DNA of 11,511 nucleotides from Candidatus Omnitrophota bacterium (GCA_020354945.1 CP070655.1:179831-191341); one strand, 5' to 3'; numbered from the stretch's first letter, positions 4,277 through 11,511 are shown. Made by a program: numbers and translations. Notes: generated by a model not told the origin, from the letters alone.

Positions 4277-5239
4277 ATTCTCTATCACAAGTGAAGCTGC
4301 ACCAGTAATCCCTGCCTCATCAACGAAATTAGCTCGCATTACCTTTAACGCCTTAAGATGCTGGTTCATCGTCCGCCTGACGAGCTCTTTTTTCAACGGA
4401 GTGAAAATAAACTTTCCTGCTTTTGATATACCGCCGCCAATAATTATCCTCTCCGGATTAAGGACATTTACTAAACCGCTTAAACCGATGCCTAAATAAG
4501 TGCCTGTTTCCTTCCAAATTTCTATAGAGAACTTATCACCATTTTTTGCTGCTTTTGTGAGCAACTCAGGTGTTATCTTCTGCAATTTTCCACCTACCAT
4601 ATCTACCAAAGATGTCTTTCTCCCCTCTTTGATTTGTTTTATAACTCTATTTATAATATATTTATTTCCAACAAACGCTTCCATACAACCTTTGCTGCCG
4701 CAGCCGCATCCTGGTCCGTTTATGTCTATGCATATATGGCCTATCTCTCCTGCAGAATAATTGCTTCCGCGATAAACTCCTCCCTCTATTATAAGGCCGC
4801 CTCCAATTCCCGAGCCAAGAGTAACGCATATAGCATTTTTAGCGCCACGGCAAGCGCCCCATTTAAGCTGGCCGCAGGCAAAGGCGTTCGCATCATTGTC
4901 TATAAATACGGGGGTCTTAAAAAATTTGCGTAATATCTTTTTTAAAGGAACTTCCTTCCAGCCTTTTATATTCGTTAAATTATGCACAATGCCTTTACTG
5001 TAATCTACGGTGCCGGGAATCCCGATACCTATACCGGATAAATTACCCTTAGCTCTTCTATTATTTTTTATAACCTGGCCTATCTCCTCAATTAGTCTTT
5101 TAATAAAAGCCTTCTTCGAAACGAACTTTTTAGTAAGAAAAGAGGTTTTGGAAACAATTTTACCGCCTTTTTCCACCAGGCCTACTTTAACTAAAGTTGC
5201 GCCAATATCAACGCCTAAAACATGCTTTTTATTTTGCAT
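4271..5239 (-). CDS. ROK family sugar kinase (glucokinase-like)
   Basis: GVDIGAT phosphate-binding motif, GIGIPG, DNDANA, TLGSGIGGG, AGEIGH and the zinc motif CGCGSKGCME. No N-terminal HTH, so kinase rather than repressor. ATG at 5239 preferred over GTG at 5245. Confidence 0.9.
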   Translation of the reverse strand: MQNKKHVLGVDIGATLVKVGLVEKGGKIVSKTSFLTKKFVSKKAFIKRLIEEIGQVIKNNRRAKGNLSGIGIGIPGTVDYSKGIVHNLTNIKGWKEVPLKKILRKFFKTPVFIDNDANAFACGQLKWGACRGAKNAICVTLGSGIGGGLIIEGGVYRGSNYSAGEIGHICIDINGPGCGCGSKGCMEAFVGNKYIINRVIKQIKEGRKTSLVDMVGGKLQKITPELLTKAAKNGDKFSIEIWKETGTYLGIGLSGLVNVLNPERIIIGGGISKAGKFIFTPLKKELVRRTMNQHLKALKVMRANFVDEAGITGAASLVIENK

Positions 5240-6581
5240 ATACACACACTCTATTTTTGCCGGCTCCTTTTGCCTTATATATCATCCTGTCTGCTTTTTC
5301 TATTAAATTAGACCAAGTTTTAGCATCCTCCGGATAACTAGCCACTCCTATGCTAACCGTTGCCTCAAGGTTTTCCACGCTTTCCCTGAGCCTGCTTGCA
5401 ACAAGCTCTGCGCCTTTTGTATCTGTGTCAGGAAAAATTATGCAAAATTCTTCGCCTCCGTATCTGGCTATAATGTCTATCTCACGAATCCCGCCCTTTA
5501 GCACAGAGGCTATCTTTTTTAATAACAGGTCTCCTTTCAAGTGTCCGTATCTATCATTATAATTTTTAAAGTTGTCTATGTCTATCATGAGCAAAGAAAC
5601 TCTACTGTTAAAGCGGTCTGCTCTATTTAATTCTTCATTCAAGCGCTCAAGCATATGCCTCCTGACAAATACGCCTGTTAACCCGTCGGTAATGGCCAAC
5701 TCCTGAACCAATTCATACAATCTTATGCGCTCCAATGCCATAGAAAACTGGTTGGCTACCACTGTAAATCTATCTCTTTGCTCAAGGTCTATATCCTCTG
5801 CCGCTAAAATTGCATTGGTTTTTTCTCCGGATATTATAGGCGCCGCTATAAAGGTATTTAATTCTTCCGGAGGCATAAACTCTTCGGCATCAATTTTGCC
5901 TTTTTTAATATCTATTTGAAGCAGCTGTTTCTTGCGTAGCATAAATTTAAGCAACCCTTCTCCATATCCTATCCCCTCAATCTGCTCCATCTTAGTTTTG
6001 GTTATTTGATAAATCTTATCAATCTTCACTGTTTCGTCTGAATGGTAGAGAATAATAAGTTCGCATCTTTTAAATTTGAATGATTCTGTTATAGTATCGC
6101 GCAAGATGTTTAAAAGGTTATCAAAGGCAAAGCAAGAACCCATCCTTTTTACCGAATAGTAAAGGTTGCTCATCTCAGACGCCTTATTTTCTAGATAAGC
6201 CCTGGAATCATTTACCTGAGCGGTTGTTGAGCTCGATTTTGCAAATTTTTCCTTTAATAACCCAATGTTATCCTGCTTATAATTTTTTAATTTATCAAAA
6301 ATTCTATACATTCCGATTGATAATAAGGCACTGCCGATAAACAGGGAGATACTCTGGGCTACTTCAGCTGCCGATGCGCCTCCATGCATCAATGTCAAAC
6401 CCAGAACACAGCAAAATGATGTTAGCAATAATGTGCTAAATGCCTTGAAAAAATAGCCGCTGATAACAATAGGGATAATGCAAAGGTTAAAAACAAAATA
6501 ATAATCCTTTATCTGAGTGGCTATTAGTAATGATATCGTATATATGAAACTGACAGATACTAGTAATATCAACTGGTGCAT
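5229..6581 (-). CDS. Membrane-anchored GAF-GGDEF diguanylate cyclase with RxxD I-site
   Basis: About 95 hydrophobic N-terminal residues, a GAF-like middle region (FIAAPII...ANQFSMALE), AITDGLTG, MIDIDNFKNYNDRYGH and REIDIIARYGGEEF. Confidence 0.9.
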   Translation of the reverse strand: MHQLILLVSVSFIYTISLLIATQIKDYYFVFNLCIIPIVISGYFFKAFSTLLLTSFCCVLGLTLMHGGASAAEVAQSISLFIGSALLSIGMYRIFDKLKNYKQDNIGLLKEKFAKSSSTTAQVNDSRAYLENKASEMSNLYYSVKRMGSCFAFDNLLNILRDTITESFKFKRCELIILYHSDETVKIDKIYQITKTKMEQIEGIGYGEGLLKFMLRKKQLLQIDIKKGKIDAEEFMPPEELNTFIAAPIISGEKTNAILAAEDIDLEQRDRFTVVANQFSMALERIRLYELVQELAITDGLTGVFVRRHMLERLNEELNRADRFNSRVSLLMIDIDNFKNYNDRYGHLKGDLLLKKIASVLKGGIREIDIIARYGGEEFCIIFPDTDTKGAELVASRLRESVENLEATVSIGVASYPEDAKTWSNLIEKADRMIYKAKGAGKNRVCVYAK

Positions 6582-7999
6582 ACTTTATTACGCCCTTCCT
6601 TTTTTGCTTTATAGAGGGAGAAATCCATCTTTTTAAACAAATCTTCTTCATTAGATGCGTCGTCCGGAAATGATGCCACGCCGGCTGAAACTGTTATTTT
6701 TGTCTCCTGCCGCCTTAAAATAAAAGGAGTGAATTCTATGTCTTTTCTTATATTCTCAGCTATTGATTTAGCTTTTTCCTTTCCTTCCCCCGGAAGCAAA
6801 ACCACAAATTCCTCTCCGCCGTAACGGGCCAGGATGTCTGTTTCTGTTGTATTTTCCCGCATAATATCAGTTATACCCTTTAGCACTTTATCGCCCGCAG
6901 CGTGTCCGTATTTATCGTTATAATCCTTAAAATGGTCTATATCTAACATAAGAATAGAAAGTTTAGATTCCTCTTCCTTGCATAGATTAAATTCTTCGGT
7001 TAATTTCTCTTTGAAATAGCGATGCACATATAATCCGGTAAGGCTGTCGGTTATGGCCAATTCCCCAGTTTTAATATAAAGGCGGGCATTATTAATCGCT
7101 GCGCTGGCTAAATCTGATATAAAATCTAACAACCTTAAATCGTCTGCTGCATAGGCGCCCTTTTCTTTACTGCCAAGGCGCAAGATTCCTATAATTCTGT
7201 GTTGAATAATTAAAGGAACTATTATCAGGGAATTAAATTGAGGTTTTTCTTTATTCTGCTTGTAATCGAATCTGAAATCGCAAGTTATATCGGATATTTG
7301 TAAAGGTTGCCTTTTATTAAAGACCCATTTATCAAAAATATCACTCTTTTTGGAAGGAGAGGCTGTTATTTGTTTCGATTTGCAAGAGTAGAGTACTAAA
7401 TCCCGGGCATCTTCGGTTACCAGGAACAACTTTGCTTCATCTGTCTTTCCGATTATCTCATAAGCCTTATCTATTGTAAGCTCATAAATTTCGTCTAAAG
7501 AAAGTTTGGCATTAAAGGCCTCGCCAAGGTCTTTAAGCTTATTGTATCTATCTAATTTAAAATAAAGCGCTTCTGTAAGTTCGGCATCCTTTTCTAAGCG
7601 GTCATCTAAAAGATTCTTCTCTTCCTGTATTCTGCTTATCTTCTGGTCTTCTTCTAATAAAAGAGCGTTGCTTTTTTTATAAAATAAATAGGACGGTATG
7701 GCTATGCCTATCATTATAATTATTTGAAAATTATATATCAATGAATTTAAGCTCAAAGATACTAACATAATCAATGGGGCAGAAAGAATGAAAAAGACAA
7801 GCCCCCATACTGAGCCCACGCCCTGCCAGATTAGAATAAAACCTAAAGTCAACAAAATAAAACCATAAGGAGTAACATTTCTTAACGAAGCCGAGCCGGC
7901 GGCTATCTTTGAAAAGCCAAAAACAAATAAAGATGCGGCAATTGCAAAGGCTGCAATAGATATAAATGCACAGATTATTCTATATCTTTGGGGATACAT
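6569..7999 (-). CDS. Membrane-anchored GAF-GGDEF diguanylate cyclase lacking the RxxD I-site
   Basis: About 105 hydrophobic N-terminal residues, a coiled-coil-like linker, a GAF domain (SLIIVPLI..IIGILRL...DDLRLL...AINNARLY), AITDSLTG, MLDIDHFKDYNDKYGH and TETDILARYGGEEF. Confidence 0.92.
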   Translation of the reverse strand: MYPQRYRIICAFISIAAFAIAASLFVFGFSKIAAGSASLRNVTPYGFILLTLGFILIWQGVGSVWGLVFFILSAPLIMLVSLSLNSLIYNFQIIIMIGIAIPSYLFYKKSNALLLEEDQKISRIQEEKNLLDDRLEKDAELTEALYFKLDRYNKLKDLGEAFNAKLSLDEIYELTIDKAYEIIGKTDEAKLFLVTEDARDLVLYSCKSKQITASPSKKSDIFDKWVFNKRQPLQISDITCDFRFDYKQNKEKPQFNSLIIVPLIIQHRIIGILRLGSKEKGAYAADDLRLLDFISDLASAAINNARLYIKTGELAITDSLTGLYVHRYFKEKLTEEFNLCKEEESKLSILMLDIDHFKDYNDKYGHAAGDKVLKGITDIMRENTTETDILARYGGEEFVVLLPGEGKEKAKSIAENIRKDIEFTPFILRRQETKITVSAGVASFPDDASNEEDLFKKMDFSLYKAKKEGRNKVCTS

Positions 8000-8034: not shown

Positions 8035-9138
8035 TTACACGATGGCCTTGTCGTCCTTGACATCAAAGAAATGCACTTTGCTCATATCAAAGACTAATTC
8101 AAGGTCTTGATTAACTGCTGGTTTGTCATGCCCGCCGACCCGGGCAACAAATGTATGCTTGCCGCTATTAAGGTGTAAGAAAACTTCGGCTCCCATAGGT
8201 TCGCATACCTCGCAATTCGCAGTAACAACATTTTCTTCAGGCGCCTCCTGAACAAATAATCTATCGTATATATCCTCCGGCCTTATTCCAAAAATAACCT
8301 CTTTGCCAACATAGGGGATAAGTTTATCCGTTATCTCATCAAGTATCTTTACCTTGAAATTGCCTTCGTTGAAATAAAATTTTCCGTCTTTTTTTATTAT
8401 CTGGCCGTTCATGAAATTCATCGGAGGCGAACCTATAAAACCCGCCACAAACTTGTTTTTGGGTTTATCATAAAGGGCAATTGGGTCATCTATCTGCTGT
8501 ATTGCACCTTCTTTCATAACTACTATTCTGGTGCCCATGGTCATAGCTTCTACCTGATCATGGGTTACGTATATCATAGTGGTTTGAAGCCTGGTATGGA
8601 GCTTGCTAATCTCTGTCCTCATCTGGACACGCAATTTGGCATCCAGATTGCTCAAAGGCTCATCGAATAAAAAGACAAGCGGTTTTCTCACTATCGCTCT
8701 GCCTACGGCAACTCTCTGCTGTTCGCCGCCGGAGAGTTCTTTAGGCCGTTTATTTAGGTGTTTGGTAATATTGAGAATCTGGGCAGCATCTCTCACCCTC
8801 TGGTCTATTTCTGATTTTGGAAACTTGCGAAGTTTAAGCCCAAAAGCCATATTTTCATACACAGTCATATGCGGGTAAAGTGCATAATTCTGAAATACCA
8901 TCGCAATATTTCTATCTTTAGCCGGGACGTCATTTACCATTTTATCGCCGATCCAAATCTTTCCTGTAGTGGCCTCTTCCAGACCTGCTATCATCCTTAA
9001 GAATGTAGATTTCCCGCATCCGGAAGGGCCTACCAGAACGAGAAATTCTTTATTTTCAATGCCTAGATTGATATCCTTCACCGCATATACATTTGGAGGG
9101 AATTTTTTGCTGACATTTCTTAAGCTAACTTGAGCCAT
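8035..9138 (-). CDS. Carbohydrate ABC transporter ATP-binding subunit (MalK/UgpC/MsmX type)
   Basis: Walker A GPSGCGKST, Q-loop VFQNYALYPHM, signature LSGGEQQR, Walker B FLFDEPLSNLD, YVTHDQVEAMT, GFIGSPPMN and a C-terminal TOBE-like region. AAGGGG SD. Confidence 0.95.
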   Translation of the reverse strand: MAQVSLRNVSKKFPPNVYAVKDINLGIENKEFLVLVGPSGCGKSTFLRMIAGLEEATTGKIWIGDKMVNDVPAKDRNIAMVFQNYALYPHMTVYENMAFGLKLRKFPKSEIDQRVRDAAQILNITKHLNKRPKELSGGEQQRVAVGRAIVRKPLVFLFDEPLSNLDAKLRVQMRTEISKLHTRLQTTMIYVTHDQVEAMTMGTRIVVMKEGAIQQIDDPIALYDKPKNKFVAGFIGSPPMNFMNGQIIKKDGKFYFNEGNFKVKILDEITDKLIPYVGKEVIFGIRPEDIYDRLFVQEAPEENVVTANCEVCEPMGAEVFLHLNSGKHTFVARVGGHDKPAVNQDLELVFDMSKVHFFDVKDDKAIV

Positions 9139-9162
9139 TTTCTGTCAACCCCTTACTGCTGT

Positions 9163-9213
9163 TTTCGTGTACCGTTAACCGTGTACAGTTTCAACGCTAA
9201 ACGGTAAACGAAA
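9163..9213. repeat. Inverted repeat built from degenerate heptamers
   Basis: tttcgtgtaccgttaaccgt (9163-9182) and acgctaaacggtaaacgaaa (9194-9213) are complementary at 17 of 20 positions. Units are cgtgtac/cgttaac/cgtgtac and cgctaaa/cggtaaa. Confidence 0.75.
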
Positions 9214-9254
9214 CGAGGTTAAATTTGATAGACAAAATAACGGTACATGAATCG

Positions 9255-10112
9255 TTACGTTAAATACTCCAGTAATTTCGATATAGTTTCTTTCATCTGG
9301 GGCCTGCTGACAATCATATCTATAAGGCCATGCTCAAGCACAAATTCTGAACGTTGAAATCCTTCCGGAAGCTTCTGCTTTATGGTCTGCTCAATAACTC
9401 TTGGGCCTGTAAAGCCGATCAATGCCTTTGGCTCTGCCATTATAATATCACCTAACGAGGCAAAGCTGGCCATTACCCCGGCCATAGTCGGATGGGTAAG
9501 TACCGATATAAATAGATTTCCTTTTTTATGCAGTCTTGAGATCGCTGCGGAGGTTTTGGCCATCTGCATTAAAGAGAACAGCCCTTCATACATTCTGGCG
9601 CCACCGCCCGAACCTGATATTATAACAAGAGGAAATTTCTTCTCAATAGCCAATTCAGCAGCCCGGGTTATCTTTTCTCCGACTACAGAACCCATAGACC
9701 CCATTATAAATCTTGAATCCGTTACCGCTAAAACTGCATTTGCTCCATTTATCTTTCCGGTGCCATATATCACTGCTTCTTTCATGCCTGTGGCATTTTG
9801 GTCTTCCTTCAATTTATTCTTATATGTTTTTGGCCCTTTGAATGCAAGAGGGTCAGCTGAAGTTATGTCTTTGCCAAATTCTTTAAAGGTGTCTTTATCA
9901 ATAGTGATGTCCACCCGTTCACGGGCACCTATTACAAAATGGTAATCGCACTTAGGGCAAACTTTTAAATTCTCCTGGAGGGCTTTGTTGTATATTATCT
10001 CTCCGCAGCCTTCGCATTTTGTCCACAAGCCACCGGGTATATCCTTTTTCTTCTGTTGTTTAAATTTCTTAGCTCTTACGATAGTATATTTTGGTTTTCT
10101 AAATACAGGCAT
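9255..10112 (-). CDS. accD: Acetyl-CoA carboxylase carboxyltransferase beta subunit
   Basis: Zinc finger LWTKCEGC...VCPKCDYH, FIMGSMGSVVGEK, GGARMYEG..SLMQM, IGFTGPRVIEQT and LPEGFQRSEF. ATG at 10112 preferred over TTG at 10118. Confidence 0.95.
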   Translation of the reverse strand: MPVFRKPKYTIVRAKKFKQQKKKDIPGGLWTKCEGCGEIIYNKALQENLKVCPKCDYHFVIGARERVDITIDKDTFKEFGKDITSADPLAFKGPKTYKNKLKEDQNATGMKEAVIYGTGKINGANAVLAVTDSRFIMGSMGSVVGEKITRAAELAIEKKFPLVIISGSGGGARMYEGLFSLMQMAKTSAAISRLHKKGNLFISVLTHPTMAGVMASFASLGDIIMAEPKALIGFTGPRVIEQTIKQKLPEGFQRSEFVLEHGLIDMIVSRPQMKETISKLLEYLT

Positions 10113-10118
10113 TTTCAA

Positions 10119-10146
10119 TCAGTTTTCAGTCATCAGTTATCAGTTT
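10119..10146. repeat. Tandem heptamer repeat, 4 x TCAGTYW
   Basis: tcagttt-tcagtca-tcagtta-tcagttt occupies most of the gap directly upstream of accD. Confidence 0.85.
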
Positions 10147-10152
10147 GATACG

Positions 10153-10791
10153 CTATAACCCCAATAATTCTTTTACCTTATCTATTGCAGATGAGGCATT
10201 ATCCGCATAGCCATCCGCGCCTATTTCATCTGCATATTCTTGAGTAACCGGCGCGCCTCCGATGATAGTCTTTATCTTACCGTTTAAACCCTCAATCTTT
10301 AATAAATTAATCGTGGCCTTCATAGACGGCATAGAGGTGGTAATAAGGGAAGACATCGCTATAACTTCTGCGTCGCTCTTAATGGCCTCATCAATAAACC
10401 GCCTGGGGGCTACATCTATACCTAAATCGATAACTGAAAAGCCGCCCCCTTTAAACATCATTGATACTAAATTTTTACCTATATCGTGCAAATCGCCTTT
10501 TGATGTGCCGATGACTATTTTCGCCATAGGATTGACTCCGGCCTTAACCAAAAGCGGCTCTAGGATATCTAATCCGGCTTGCATGGCCTTTGCTGATATG
10601 AGTACCTCAGGCACAAAGATTTCATTAGATTTGAATTTCTCGCCAACAATAGACATACCGGCTATGAGCCCTTTATTCAGTATATCCTGCACCGGAAGGC
10701 CATCACATATTGCTCCTTTTACAAGAATTGGTATACCGGCAATGTTTCCTGTAAATATTGCATCTTTTATATTATCCCACTTTATGCCCAT
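10153..10791 (-). CDS. Corrinoid (cobalamin-binding) protein, MtbC/MttC/MetH B12-binding-domain family
   Basis: N-terminal cap domain (GLIAGMSIVGEKF...FVPEVLISAKAM), base-off His motif GDLHDIGKNLV, DLGIDV, MSSLITT, IGGAPVT and IGADGY. Confidence 0.93.
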   Translation of the reverse strand: MGIKWDNIKDAIFTGNIAGIPILVKGAICDGLPVQDILNKGLIAGMSIVGEKFKSNEIFVPEVLISAKAMQAGLDILEPLLVKAGVNPMAKIVIGTSKGDLHDIGKNLVSMMFKGGGFSVIDLGIDVAPRRFIDEAIKSDAEVIAMSSLITTSMPSMKATINLLKIEGLNGKIKTIIGGAPVTQEYADEIGADGYADNASSAIDKVKELLGL

Positions 10792-10814
10792 TTTATATAT
10801 TTAATATAAGCCAT

Positions 10815-10842
10815 ATATTAACACAAAGCGTCGAAATATCAA
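10815..10842 (-). promoter_or_regulatory. Possible sigma70 promoter for the corrinoid protein gene
   Basis: TTGATA (10842-10837), a 16-nt spacer and TG-T-TAATAT as an extended -10 (10820-10815), immediately after the terminator U-tract. The AT-rich context makes a chance match possible. Confidence 0.4.
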
Positions 10843-10844
10843 GC

Positions 10845-10893
10845 AAAAAAAAAGAGGCCGCTTGAAAACCCATAAAATGCCTCAGCGACCTCT
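10845..10893 (-). terminator. Rho-independent terminator
   Basis: Minus strand AGAGGTCGCT...AGCGGCCTCT forms a 10-bp stem with one U.G pair, extendable inward, followed directly by 8 more T. Confidence 0.85.
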
Positions 10894-11155
10894 GTAATTT
10901 CAAAATATAAAATAAAAACGCGTCTTAAACCTAAACCTTTAGAAGAAATTTTTACTTTGAAGAGATGATGTGGAAATTTATGGGCCTTTTATATCTTTTG
11001 CCCTAAGGGGGTATTCTCCCTATTTTCGCATCCTCTTCAAAGATCTCTTTTTGGGGTTCAAGGCGCGCTTTTTTGATGAGACCTCAAAGAATCTAACCCT
11101 CACCTTCTTTTAAAGTAAGGCACGCTTTAGGTGCCATCCTTCTTGGCCTCATCAC
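10845..11155 (-). ncRNA. Candidate ~310-nt structured non-coding RNA or leader RNA, family unknown
   Basis: Bounded by a consensus promoter and a terminator, with no credible ORF. Several long helices are present, and most of their non-Watson-Crick pairs are G.U on the minus strand. Confidence 0.65.
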
Positions 11156-11160
11156 TTTTA

Positions 11161-11189
11161 ATTATACGCTATAAAAGGCGTTGAGTCAA
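11161..11189 (-). promoter_or_regulatory. Strong sigma70-type promoter
   Basis: TTGACT (11189-11184), exactly 17 nt, TATAAT (11166-11161). Predicted TSS about 11155-11153. Confidence 0.85.
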
Positions 11190-11201
11190 TATCTTGAGGA
11201 T

Positions 11202-11274
11202 AAAAATAGTGGGCAGTGGTCCATTTTTGCCAAAATTGCTACAATAACAAAAACAGGCCGCTGTCCCTATTTTT
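11202..11274. repeat. Imperfect inverted repeat immediately downstream of the DUF1015 stop codon (REP-like element or terminator)
   Basis: aaaaatagtgggcagtggtccattttt (11202-11228) pairs with aaaaacaggccgctgtccctattttt (11249-11274), with three G.T pairs on the + strand. Confidence 0.75.
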
Positions 11275-11275
11275 G

Positions 11276-11511
11276 TTAAAATTTATGGATCACTAACCCT
11301 GTGAGAGGCTTAGGATAGAAATAGGTGGACTTATGCGGCATGAATAAACCACCATTTGCCACTTCTTGCAGTTGCTCTATTTTGGTGTAATTCAATAGAA
11401 ACACCACCTGGAAAAGACCACGATCTACCTCTTCCACAGCCTCCAAGGCATCGTGTCGATATTTAATTTTACTCTCGTCATCAAGCATATTCTCATCCAC
11501 TTTGAGGAGTC
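11276..11511 (-). CDS. DUF1015 family protein, C-terminal fragment (5' end outside the window)
   Basis: The frame is open to the window edge, so the GTG at 11500 is internal. The C-terminal MPHKSTYFYPKPLTGLVI matches the conserved DUF1015 MPxKSTxFxPK motif. Confidence 0.85.
   Translation of the reverse strand, partial: LLKVDENMLDDESKIKYRHDALEAVEEVDRGLFQVVFLLNYTKIEQLQEVANGGLFMPHKSTYFYPKPLTGLVIHKF

Follow-up and report, generated by a model that had tools for sequence, protein, structure and literature searches.

Locus and neighbouring genes

The window analysed here is the whole stretch of 11,511 nucleotides from a Candidatus Omnitrophota bacterium, whose genome is referred to below as G000. 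On record this genome is a 'single contig', made up of 129 pieces (median 5.8 kb) joined by runs of 100 N, and the window is exactly one of these pieces. Since it is one whole piece, genes at its ends are cut, not truncated. A reading of the DUF1015 gene at the upstream end as truncated in G000 is consequently wrong, and full-length orthologues of this gene, in G001 (a second genome of the same genus, g1) and in L121 (like L120, a metagenome contig locus), match Pfam DUF1015 at 257 and 259 bits.

Between the stop codon of the DUF1015 gene (11276) and the start of the gene for a corrinoid protein (10791), the minus strand carries, in order, a promoter, an 82-nt domain 1, a 160-nt domain 2, a linker and a terminator, predicted to make up an RNA gene of about 310 nt. 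The features, in the direction of transcription and with positions counted from the first letter of the window, are as follows.

11276..11509, minus strand: 3' end of the DUF1015 gene, the upstream neighbour, cut by the contig end
11161..11189, minus strand: predicted sigma-70-type promoter of the RNA gene, with -35 TTGACT (11189-11184), a 17-nt spacer and -10 TATAAT (11166-11161)
11074..11155, minus strand: domain 1, branched, 82 nt, with a predicted 10-bp closing helix, an inner helix and two hairpins
10914..11073, minus strand: domain 2, by folding a rod of 160 nt with some 53 pairs, two small hairpins arising from its branched tip
10893..10913, minus strand: AU-rich linker, single-stranded by folding; the L121 sequence diverges from here on
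10845..10892, minus strand: intrinsic terminator, by folding a G+C-rich hairpin at about 10892-10853, then nine U, ending at 10845
10815..10842, minus strand: predicted proximal promoter of the corrinoid gene, separate from the RNA (TTGATA-16-TAATAT with TG, 9/12 matches)
10153..10791, minus strand: gene for a corrinoid (B12-binding) protein of 212 aa, the downstream neighbour (Pfam B12-binding, B12-binding_2)

The corrinoid protein resembles MtgC/MtbC but falls below all NCBIfam cut-offs, and its best relatives, at 67-70% identity, come from Omnitrophota metagenome-assembled genomes. No methyltransferase partner adjoins its gene, either at positions 8035-11509 of the window or at loci L104-L114 and L121. 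Throughout the order the genes follow one another as DUF1015, 212-aa corrinoid protein, AccD-like carboxyltransferase beta subunit and MalK-like ABC ATPase. At L009, L010, L011 and L031 a promoter block, TTGATA..TG.TAATAT, with a T-run before it, stands immediately upstream of the corrinoid gene; this block is kept across Omnitrophota genera at 67-91% protein identity, including genera without the RNA, and in G000 it lies downstream of the RNA terminator. Elsewhere in the window (5229-7999, minus strand) lies a pair of neighbouring diguanylate cyclase (GGDEF) genes, of which one also encodes a GAF domain, followed downstream on the same strand by a ROK-family gene and an LptD-like gene.

The transcription unit

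The promoter of the RNA gene agrees with the consensus at 11 of 12 positions and places the predicted start of transcription at 11155/11156. This TTGACT-17-TATAAT element, with a start at about 11155, had been proposed in an initial annotation of the sequence, and the proposal is borne out by the retention of the promoter in all the homologues described below (G001, L120 and L121). Alignable sequence among these begins about 10 nt upstream of the -35 element, while the spacer upstream of the promoter is unalignable. Promoter-like sites with at least 11 of 12 matches number 116 in G000, against a chance expectation of about 40, the latter being a rough estimate of our own from composition rather than the result of a tool. 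Given so many sites of equal quality, the promoter is supportive and, taken alone, not decisive.

At the other end of the unit, folding recovers the U-rich linker and intrinsic terminator that had likewise been suggested, in the form of a hairpin at about 10892-10853 followed by nine U. A simple terminator scan does not list this terminator because its loop exceeds the limit of the scan; it is the folding of the 3' end that reveals the hairpin. The terminator of G001 is a tighter version of that in G000. At L121:3639-3745 (plus strand of that contig) the 5' half of the terminator has been swapped for an unrelated, perfect 22-bp hairpin (-43.9 kcal/mol, z -6.8) with a U-run, and the 3' half of the old terminator persists behind the new hairpin. 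A terminator is thus maintained at this position by different sequence, which would fit an RNA that must end here, and the swap argues against the existence of a conserved antiterminator partner.

The RNA unit of G000 is bracketed by a 17-nt direct repeat (88% identity; 10846-10862 and 11246-11262), each copy being the 3' half of a terminator-like hairpin. Of these hairpins the upstream one, at 11245-11278, comes after the DUF1015 stop codon; it is missing in G001, where the upstream copy of the repeat is also absent.

Predicted fold and coding potential

The minimum-free-energy fold of the whole RNA (11155-10845, minus strand) has an energy of -101.4 kcal/mol (z -4.83; 0/100 shuffles as stable) and contains every helix that had been listed in the initial annotation. 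Domain 1 alone also folds more stably than nearly all of its shuffles (z -4.33; 1/200 as stable). Its two hairpins are GGCAC/GUGCC, with a variable 7-nt loop, and UUACUUU/AAGGUGA; its inner helix (positions 14-20 with 64-70 of the RNA) is poorly supported by the variants, L121 giving A.C at 16-68 and 17-67. Domain 2 alone yields a z of -5.25, with 0/200 shuffles as stable, and is itself an inverted repeat. Its predicted fold has only small internal loops, and the most extensive unpaired region is found at the tip and not midway along the rod.

A strand asymmetry, expressed in imperfect pairs that are mostly G.U on the minus strand, had also been put forward. It holds for the whole RNA, for which the plus strand reaches only -87.6 kcal/mol, but not for domain 2 alone, where the plus strand folds at -55.5 kcal/mol and the minus strand at -49.8 kcal/mol. 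Since domain 2 is at least as stable on the plus strand, the asymmetry stems from domain 1 and the terminator, and the assignment of the gene to the minus strand has three supports, namely promoter, terminator, and domain 1 taken with the direction of one-sided substitutions: in well-supported helices these changes give G.U pairs on the minus strand and would be A.C on the plus strand.

The region is unlikely to be coding, since the only open reading frames that overlap it are of 20-47 aa and since the 20-aa frame at the 5' end of the RNA has six base changes relative to G001, all of them non-silent as read by eye from the alignment; the earlier view that there is no credible ORF therefore stands. 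ARAGORN reported 0 genes in the 11,511-nt window.

Homologues and distribution

A BLAST search with the RNA in 41 genomes located it only in G000 and, at 92% identity, in G001, five short matches (E 1.9e-4 to 5.4e-3) being taken as chance. Scanning of metagenome contigs by 20-mers gave three loci, of which two, L120 and L121, are real and the other, L119, is a chance match with no model hit; viral contigs gave 0. L120 is identical to G001 over the RNA, and L121 is a third version, making three distinct sequence versions of the promoter-RNA-terminator unit (G000; G001 = L120; L121). The whole unit is conserved in G001, L120 and L121, where it recurs between the same neighbours (DUF1015, RNA, corrinoid protein, AccD); in L121 the order DUF1015, RNA, corrinoid protein, AccD is seen to continue to the ABC ATPase.

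Covariance models of domain 2 (R1) and domain 1 (R2) agree with this picture. Scores in the homologues are 186-204 bits for R1 and, for R2, 110.4 bits in G000, 109.7 bits in both G001 and L120 and 90.6 bits in L121. Over 151 genomes of the class the two models have true matches in G000 and G001 only (2/151, both of genus g1), on the basis, as in all searches of more than 40 genomes, of scoring only 19-25 first-look candidates per genome. One extra R1 hit, in G078 (28.7 bits), was rejected as lying inside a 775-aa reading frame. When R1 and R2 were run with filters off on 10 syntenic loci only plain hairpins were found, the best scoring 20.4 and 16.0 bits, respectively. By BLAST, R1 and R2 alike, the RNA is present as a single copy in G000 and in G001.

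The arrangement DUF1015, corrinoid protein, AccD also occurs in other genera of the order, there without the RNA. The spacers between the DUF1015 and corrinoid genes in G002, G007/L010 and G008/L011 are only about 90-155 nt long, those in G009 and G011 hold a tRNA, and that in G003 holds repeated palindromic elements. The intergenic regions between the two genes in other genera, whose collection the initial annotation had advised as a source of homologues, do not contain the RNA. Our reading of these 'empty' sites is that the RNA unit would have been inserted between DUF1015 and a pre-existing terminator and promoter in an ancestor of genus g1. An RNA found only in one genus may be young and dispensable.

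The G003 spacer (L106:2128-2534, minus strand) is of some interest in its own right. Its palindromic elements include a 158-nt rod, which is present in 4 copies at 84-100% identity, and two short elements, which occur at about 30 further places. Within the 407 nt of this spacer there is a 10/12 promoter-like site at the start and no terminator-like site before the gene. At the same site L009 has a hairpin-rich spacer of 373 nt (z -9.3).

Sequence constraint and covariation

Divergence of the RNA was compared with that at four-fold degenerate sites of the neighbouring genes. Positions 1-242 of the RNA differ at 17/242 between G000 and L121, compared with 35/213 four-fold sites (Fisher p 0.0018), and at 13/242 between G000 and G001, compared with 15/84 (Fisher p 0.0011); the RNA has therefore diverged 2.4 to 3.3 times less than silent positions nearby. 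When the four sequences (three distinct) are mapped on the G000 fold, variable columns are depleted among paired positions (10/164) relative to unpaired ones (14/80; p 0.010). The basal half of the rod is the most strictly kept part, both of its strands, of 37 and 39 nt (alignment columns 77-113 and 206-244), being invariant in all four sequences.

Additional variation is available from contigs of four public runs (X2, X3, X10 and X20) that were aligned to the locus. These have at least 26 variable positions and, among those listed, 12 are unpaired and 14 fall in 12 predicted pairs, nine of which stay standard. Two pairs form graded series, 125-188 passing through A-U, G-U and G-C, and 114-201 through C-G, U-G and U-A, the latter on the assumption that two short X10 contigs represent one genome. 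The broken pairs (14-70, 133-180 and 112-208) are all situated at helix ends or in a weak apical helix.

The formal covariation analysis that had been suggested gave no significant result among the three distinct full sequences: one pair shows change on each of its sides, a count attained in 275 of 500 shuffles. RNAalifold assigned no covariation energy. Since two-sided change is no greater than in shuffles, no covariation energy is assigned and L121 contradicts the inner helix of domain 1, the structure is at present supported by thermodynamics and by the pattern of substitution, not yet by statistically sound covariation.

Expression

Run X20, on record as a metatranscriptome, contains a 155-nt contig that lies wholly inside the RNA (10985-11139) and has 5 differences from it. 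The library may include DNA, the contigs give neither ends, strand nor level, and the flanks are not covered, so that the X20 contig is a hint of expression only. The description of the RNA as 'probably abundant' in the initial annotation is accordingly based on nothing beyond promoter strength and this one 155-nt contig of one RNA library. Contigs of X2, X3 and X10 break near 10890-10904, and these may be assembly breaks.

Tests against known RNA families and RNA-binding proteins

No family of Rfam 15 matches the window at gathering score. A search at E<=10 with permissive filters over 511 bases (10780-11290) gave 13 matches, all of them noise (plant microRNAs, snoRNA and so on), and 6S, SRP, RNase P, tmRNA, T-box and riboswitch families are absent from these 13. 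The result accords with the earlier remark that hallmarks of tmRNA, RNase P, SRP, T-box and common riboswitches are lacking. Rfam at gathering score likewise found nothing on locus L002 and only tRNAs on 11 syntenic loci. Models of cobalamin riboswitches (RF00174 and variants) have no match at the RNA locus, nor in the syntenic spacers of 11 related loci.

The initial annotation had left a choice between a novel ncRNA and a very divergent 6S RNA, to be addressed by a cmscan search of Rfam and a search for a separate 6S gene. Besides the lack of an Rfam hit at the locus, a canonical 6S gene is present in G000 15 kb away, scoring 80.9 bits against a gathering cut-off of 46.4. RNase P RNA (172 bits) and tmRNA (156 bits) are also encoded at separate loci of G000. 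The domain 2 model, R1, does not match the real 6S of the genome, the best overlapping match scoring 2.2 bits. Of the two options the novel RNA is upheld by the absence of an Rfam match, the separate 6S gene and the retention of the unit in relatives. The divergent 6S is not, with 6S missing from the matches at E<=10, R1 failing to match 6S and the open region placed at the tip of the rod. The RNA gene is real and lineage-specific, and it is neither a divergent 6S RNA nor a recognisable riboswitch.

Two further classes were considered and set aside. CsrB/RsmZ-type protein sponges carry many GGA motifs in hairpin loops; the present RNA has three GGA triplets, all in stems on a by-eye reading of the predicted structure, and CsrA was not found in G000 (89% complete). 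An Hfq-dependent base-pairing sRNA is disfavoured by the failure to find Hfq in G000, at the same 89% completeness, and by a search of G000 for complementary matches, which gave none beyond chance (the longest exact matches being of 16 nt, E 0.068, in A-rich loops). As for SRP RNA, the models RF00169 and RF01854 have no match anywhere in G000, the RNA locus included. A reading of the RNA as a divergent SRP RNA was dropped because no helix-8-like motif could be discerned by eye and because the M domain of Ffh is absent from G000. A scan of G000 for SRP motifs yielded no more than dispersed matches, most of them in sequence that looks coding.

The signal recognition particle system in Omnitrophota

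The last of these comparisons led to an observation that is independent of the RNA gene and may matter more than it does. The M domain of Ffh (Pfam SRP_SPB) was not found in G000, in any of 26 relatives (0/26) or in the phylum genomes (0/151), and the Ffh equivalog TIGR00959 exceeds its cut-off in 0/26 relatives, all of which (26/26) have the SecY control (TIGR00967). At E<=1e-10 an SRP54-type GTPase domain occurs in 5/151 phylum genomes: one of these represents an FtsY of G000, and three of the other four were fetched and are all FlhF, one beside FlhA. Small SRP RNA (RF00169) is found in 0/26 relatives and in 1/150 genomes of the phylum, where the match is terminal on a short contig and the genome is 85% complete. 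These phylum-wide SRP searches, being of more than 40 genomes, scored only 19-25 first-look candidates per genome.

The G000 FtsY gene (L098:1486-2577, minus strand, equivalent to G000:C1:1078819-1079907) encodes a protein that has no orthologue even in G001, the sister species, so that the contig bearing it may be contamination. Next to the 6S gene tblastn gave a weak FtsY-like match, rejected since it lies on the opposite strand of a 326-aa frame. Across the Omnitrophota sample, then, Ffh, FtsY and SRP RNA were not found, apart from the one G000 FtsY and one RF00169 match. A search for literature pairing Omnitrophota with the signal recognition particle, FtsY or Ffh found no papers.

Proposed function and alternative explanations

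The reading that we favour, with moderate confidence, is that the locus holds an independently transcribed, structured ncRNA gene of about 310 nt, confined to one Omnitrophota genus, whose product would act in trans as a protein scaffold or decoy. Transcription would start at about 11155 from a strong promoter belonging to the gene itself, the RNA would fold into the branched 5' domain and the long rod, and transcription would end at the intrinsic terminator, before the separate promoter of the corrinoid-protein gene. The RNA may then act in trans by binding protein, with the sequence-invariant basal half of the rod as a putative recognition surface; pairing with mRNAs is probably not its mode of action. 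We favour a scaffold or decoy that binds protein because complementary matches beyond chance are lacking in G000, neither Hfq nor CsrA turned up in that 89%-complete genome, stems are preserved where loops vary, and the base of the rod is invariant. The mechanistic part taken alone (protein binding in trans, the rod base as recognition surface, no pairing with mRNAs) is nevertheless rather doubtful. A 6S- or Ms1-like role in binding RNA polymerase would be a sub-case of it that the predicted architecture does not favour.

The most serious competitor to a trans-acting RNA is a transcribed but functionless insertion, in which a palindromic or MITE-like element, with extra hairpins, has separated the DUF1015 gene from its terminator, owes its fold to being an inverted repeat and looks conserved only through the closeness of the genomes. 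Elements of this kind do occupy the same site elsewhere, as the four copies of the G003 rod and the short repeats at about 30 places testify, as does the hairpin-rich spacer of L009 (373 nt, z -9.3), and the partial exchange of the L121 terminator for a 22-bp palindrome, the ability of domain 2 to fold equally well on both strands and the restriction of the RNA to one genus would all be expected of them. Yet the RNA is present in one copy each in G000 and G001, and it diverges 2.4 to 3.3 times less than four-fold sites; changes are enriched in loops, and pair-keeping changes occur; the conserved promoter is placed exactly at the 5' helix; and domain 1, which favours the minus strand, is no simple palindrome. 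We consider a functionless insertion unlikely on these grounds.

Proximity to the corrinoid gene raises a different question, namely whether the RNA is a cis-acting 5' leader (riboswitch-like, or a protein-dependent attenuator) of the corrinoid-protein and accD genes, its terminator being the switch and read-through being set by ligand or protein. The RNA is on the same strand, its terminator ends 53 nt before the start codon, and it always precedes the same gene in the four known sequences; in G003, moreover, a 10/12 promoter-like site stands at the start of the spacer and no terminator-like site comes before the gene. Against this, no cobalamin or other riboswitch family matches, and the gene has its own promoter block between terminator and start codon, kept in genera without the RNA. 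Helices are preserved whereas loop and junction bases vary, opposite to the pattern of a ligand pocket, and the replacement in L121 of the terminator's 5' half speaks against any conserved antiterminator partner. A cis-acting leader thus seems quite improbable. Lower still we would place a second, non-canonical RNA-polymerase-binding RNA, comparable to 6S-2 of Bacillus or Ms1 of mycobacteria, with domain 2 as the polymerase-binding rod. Some bacteria are known to have two RNAs of this type, and the rod shape, the size and the strong promoter are all suitable. However, a search at E<=10 gave no 6S match, the 6S of the same genome is not recognised by R1, the open region is at the tip rather than in a central bubble between two long helical arms, and a canonical 6S is already present, making such a role very unlikely indeed.

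Returning to the trans-acting, protein-binding RNA, a bolder version of it can be entertained tentatively, as a possibility rather than an expectation: that the RNA founds a new Omnitrophota family of regulatory RNAs of medium size and works, with its two domains, as part of a ribonucleoprotein, the invariant 37- and 39-nt strands being its putative binding site and its origin a recent one in one genus. If true, it would show the birth of a structured RNA gene beside an existing terminator, in an uncultured, ultra-small and possibly host-dependent lineage.

Some significance attaches to the locus in any case. Our search for literature on non-coding RNAs of Omnitrophota found no paper. The phylum is uncultured, and a well-delimited promoter-RNA-terminator unit without an Rfam relative is a clean candidate for metatranscriptomic validation. 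The 'empty' site in relatives means that the case can show how a structured RNA gene newly enters the space that separates a gene from its terminator. The narrow distribution limits the wider impact of the RNA itself.

Comparison with known systems

Of the known RNAs that come close in general appearance, one is 6S RNA (SsrS, RF00013), which is nearly universal in bacteria, binds RNA polymerase holoenzyme and templates product RNAs, and whose architecture places a large central bubble between a closing stem and a terminal stem. Like 6S, the RNA described here is highly structured and mostly double-stranded, of comparable size, and encoded by a stand-alone gene with a strong sigma-70 promoter. 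In contrast to 6S, it has no covariance-model match and, in the predicted fold, no central bubble; it carries an extra 5' domain of 82 nt, is restricted to one genus whereas 6S occurs almost everywhere, and belongs to a genome that already has a canonical 6S.

The resemblance to cobalamin riboswitches (RF00174 and variants) lies in the combination of a structured RNA and an intrinsic terminator that immediately precede the gene of a B12-binding protein, and riboswitch-terminated ncRNAs exist in the form of EutX/Rli55. The present RNA differs in having no match to the riboswitch models, in its variable loops and in the position of the downstream gene's own promoter after the terminator. The repeated palindromic or MITE-like elements of the G003 type share with it a rod, roughly 160 nt long and able to fold on both strands, and a location in the same slot between DUF1015 and corrinoid genes. 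The RNA is set apart from them by its single copy, its own conserved promoter, a strand-asymmetric 5' domain and constraint relative to silent sites, and there is no sequence similarity, R1 scoring 11.4 bits on the G003 element.

A further parallel is with the orphan large structured bacterial ncRNAs revealed by comparative genomics, such as the raiA motif, ROOL, OLE and GOLLD, all of which are Rfam families. The present RNA matches none of these, is known from three distinct sequences only, and is simpler, showing no sign of pseudoknots or of conserved nucleotides at junctions. It resembles them in being intergenic and non-coding, in its stable multi-helix fold and in a narrow or patchy distribution. 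It is a new RNA family with no relative in Rfam, of a kind that is already familiar, the orphan structured bacterial ncRNA.
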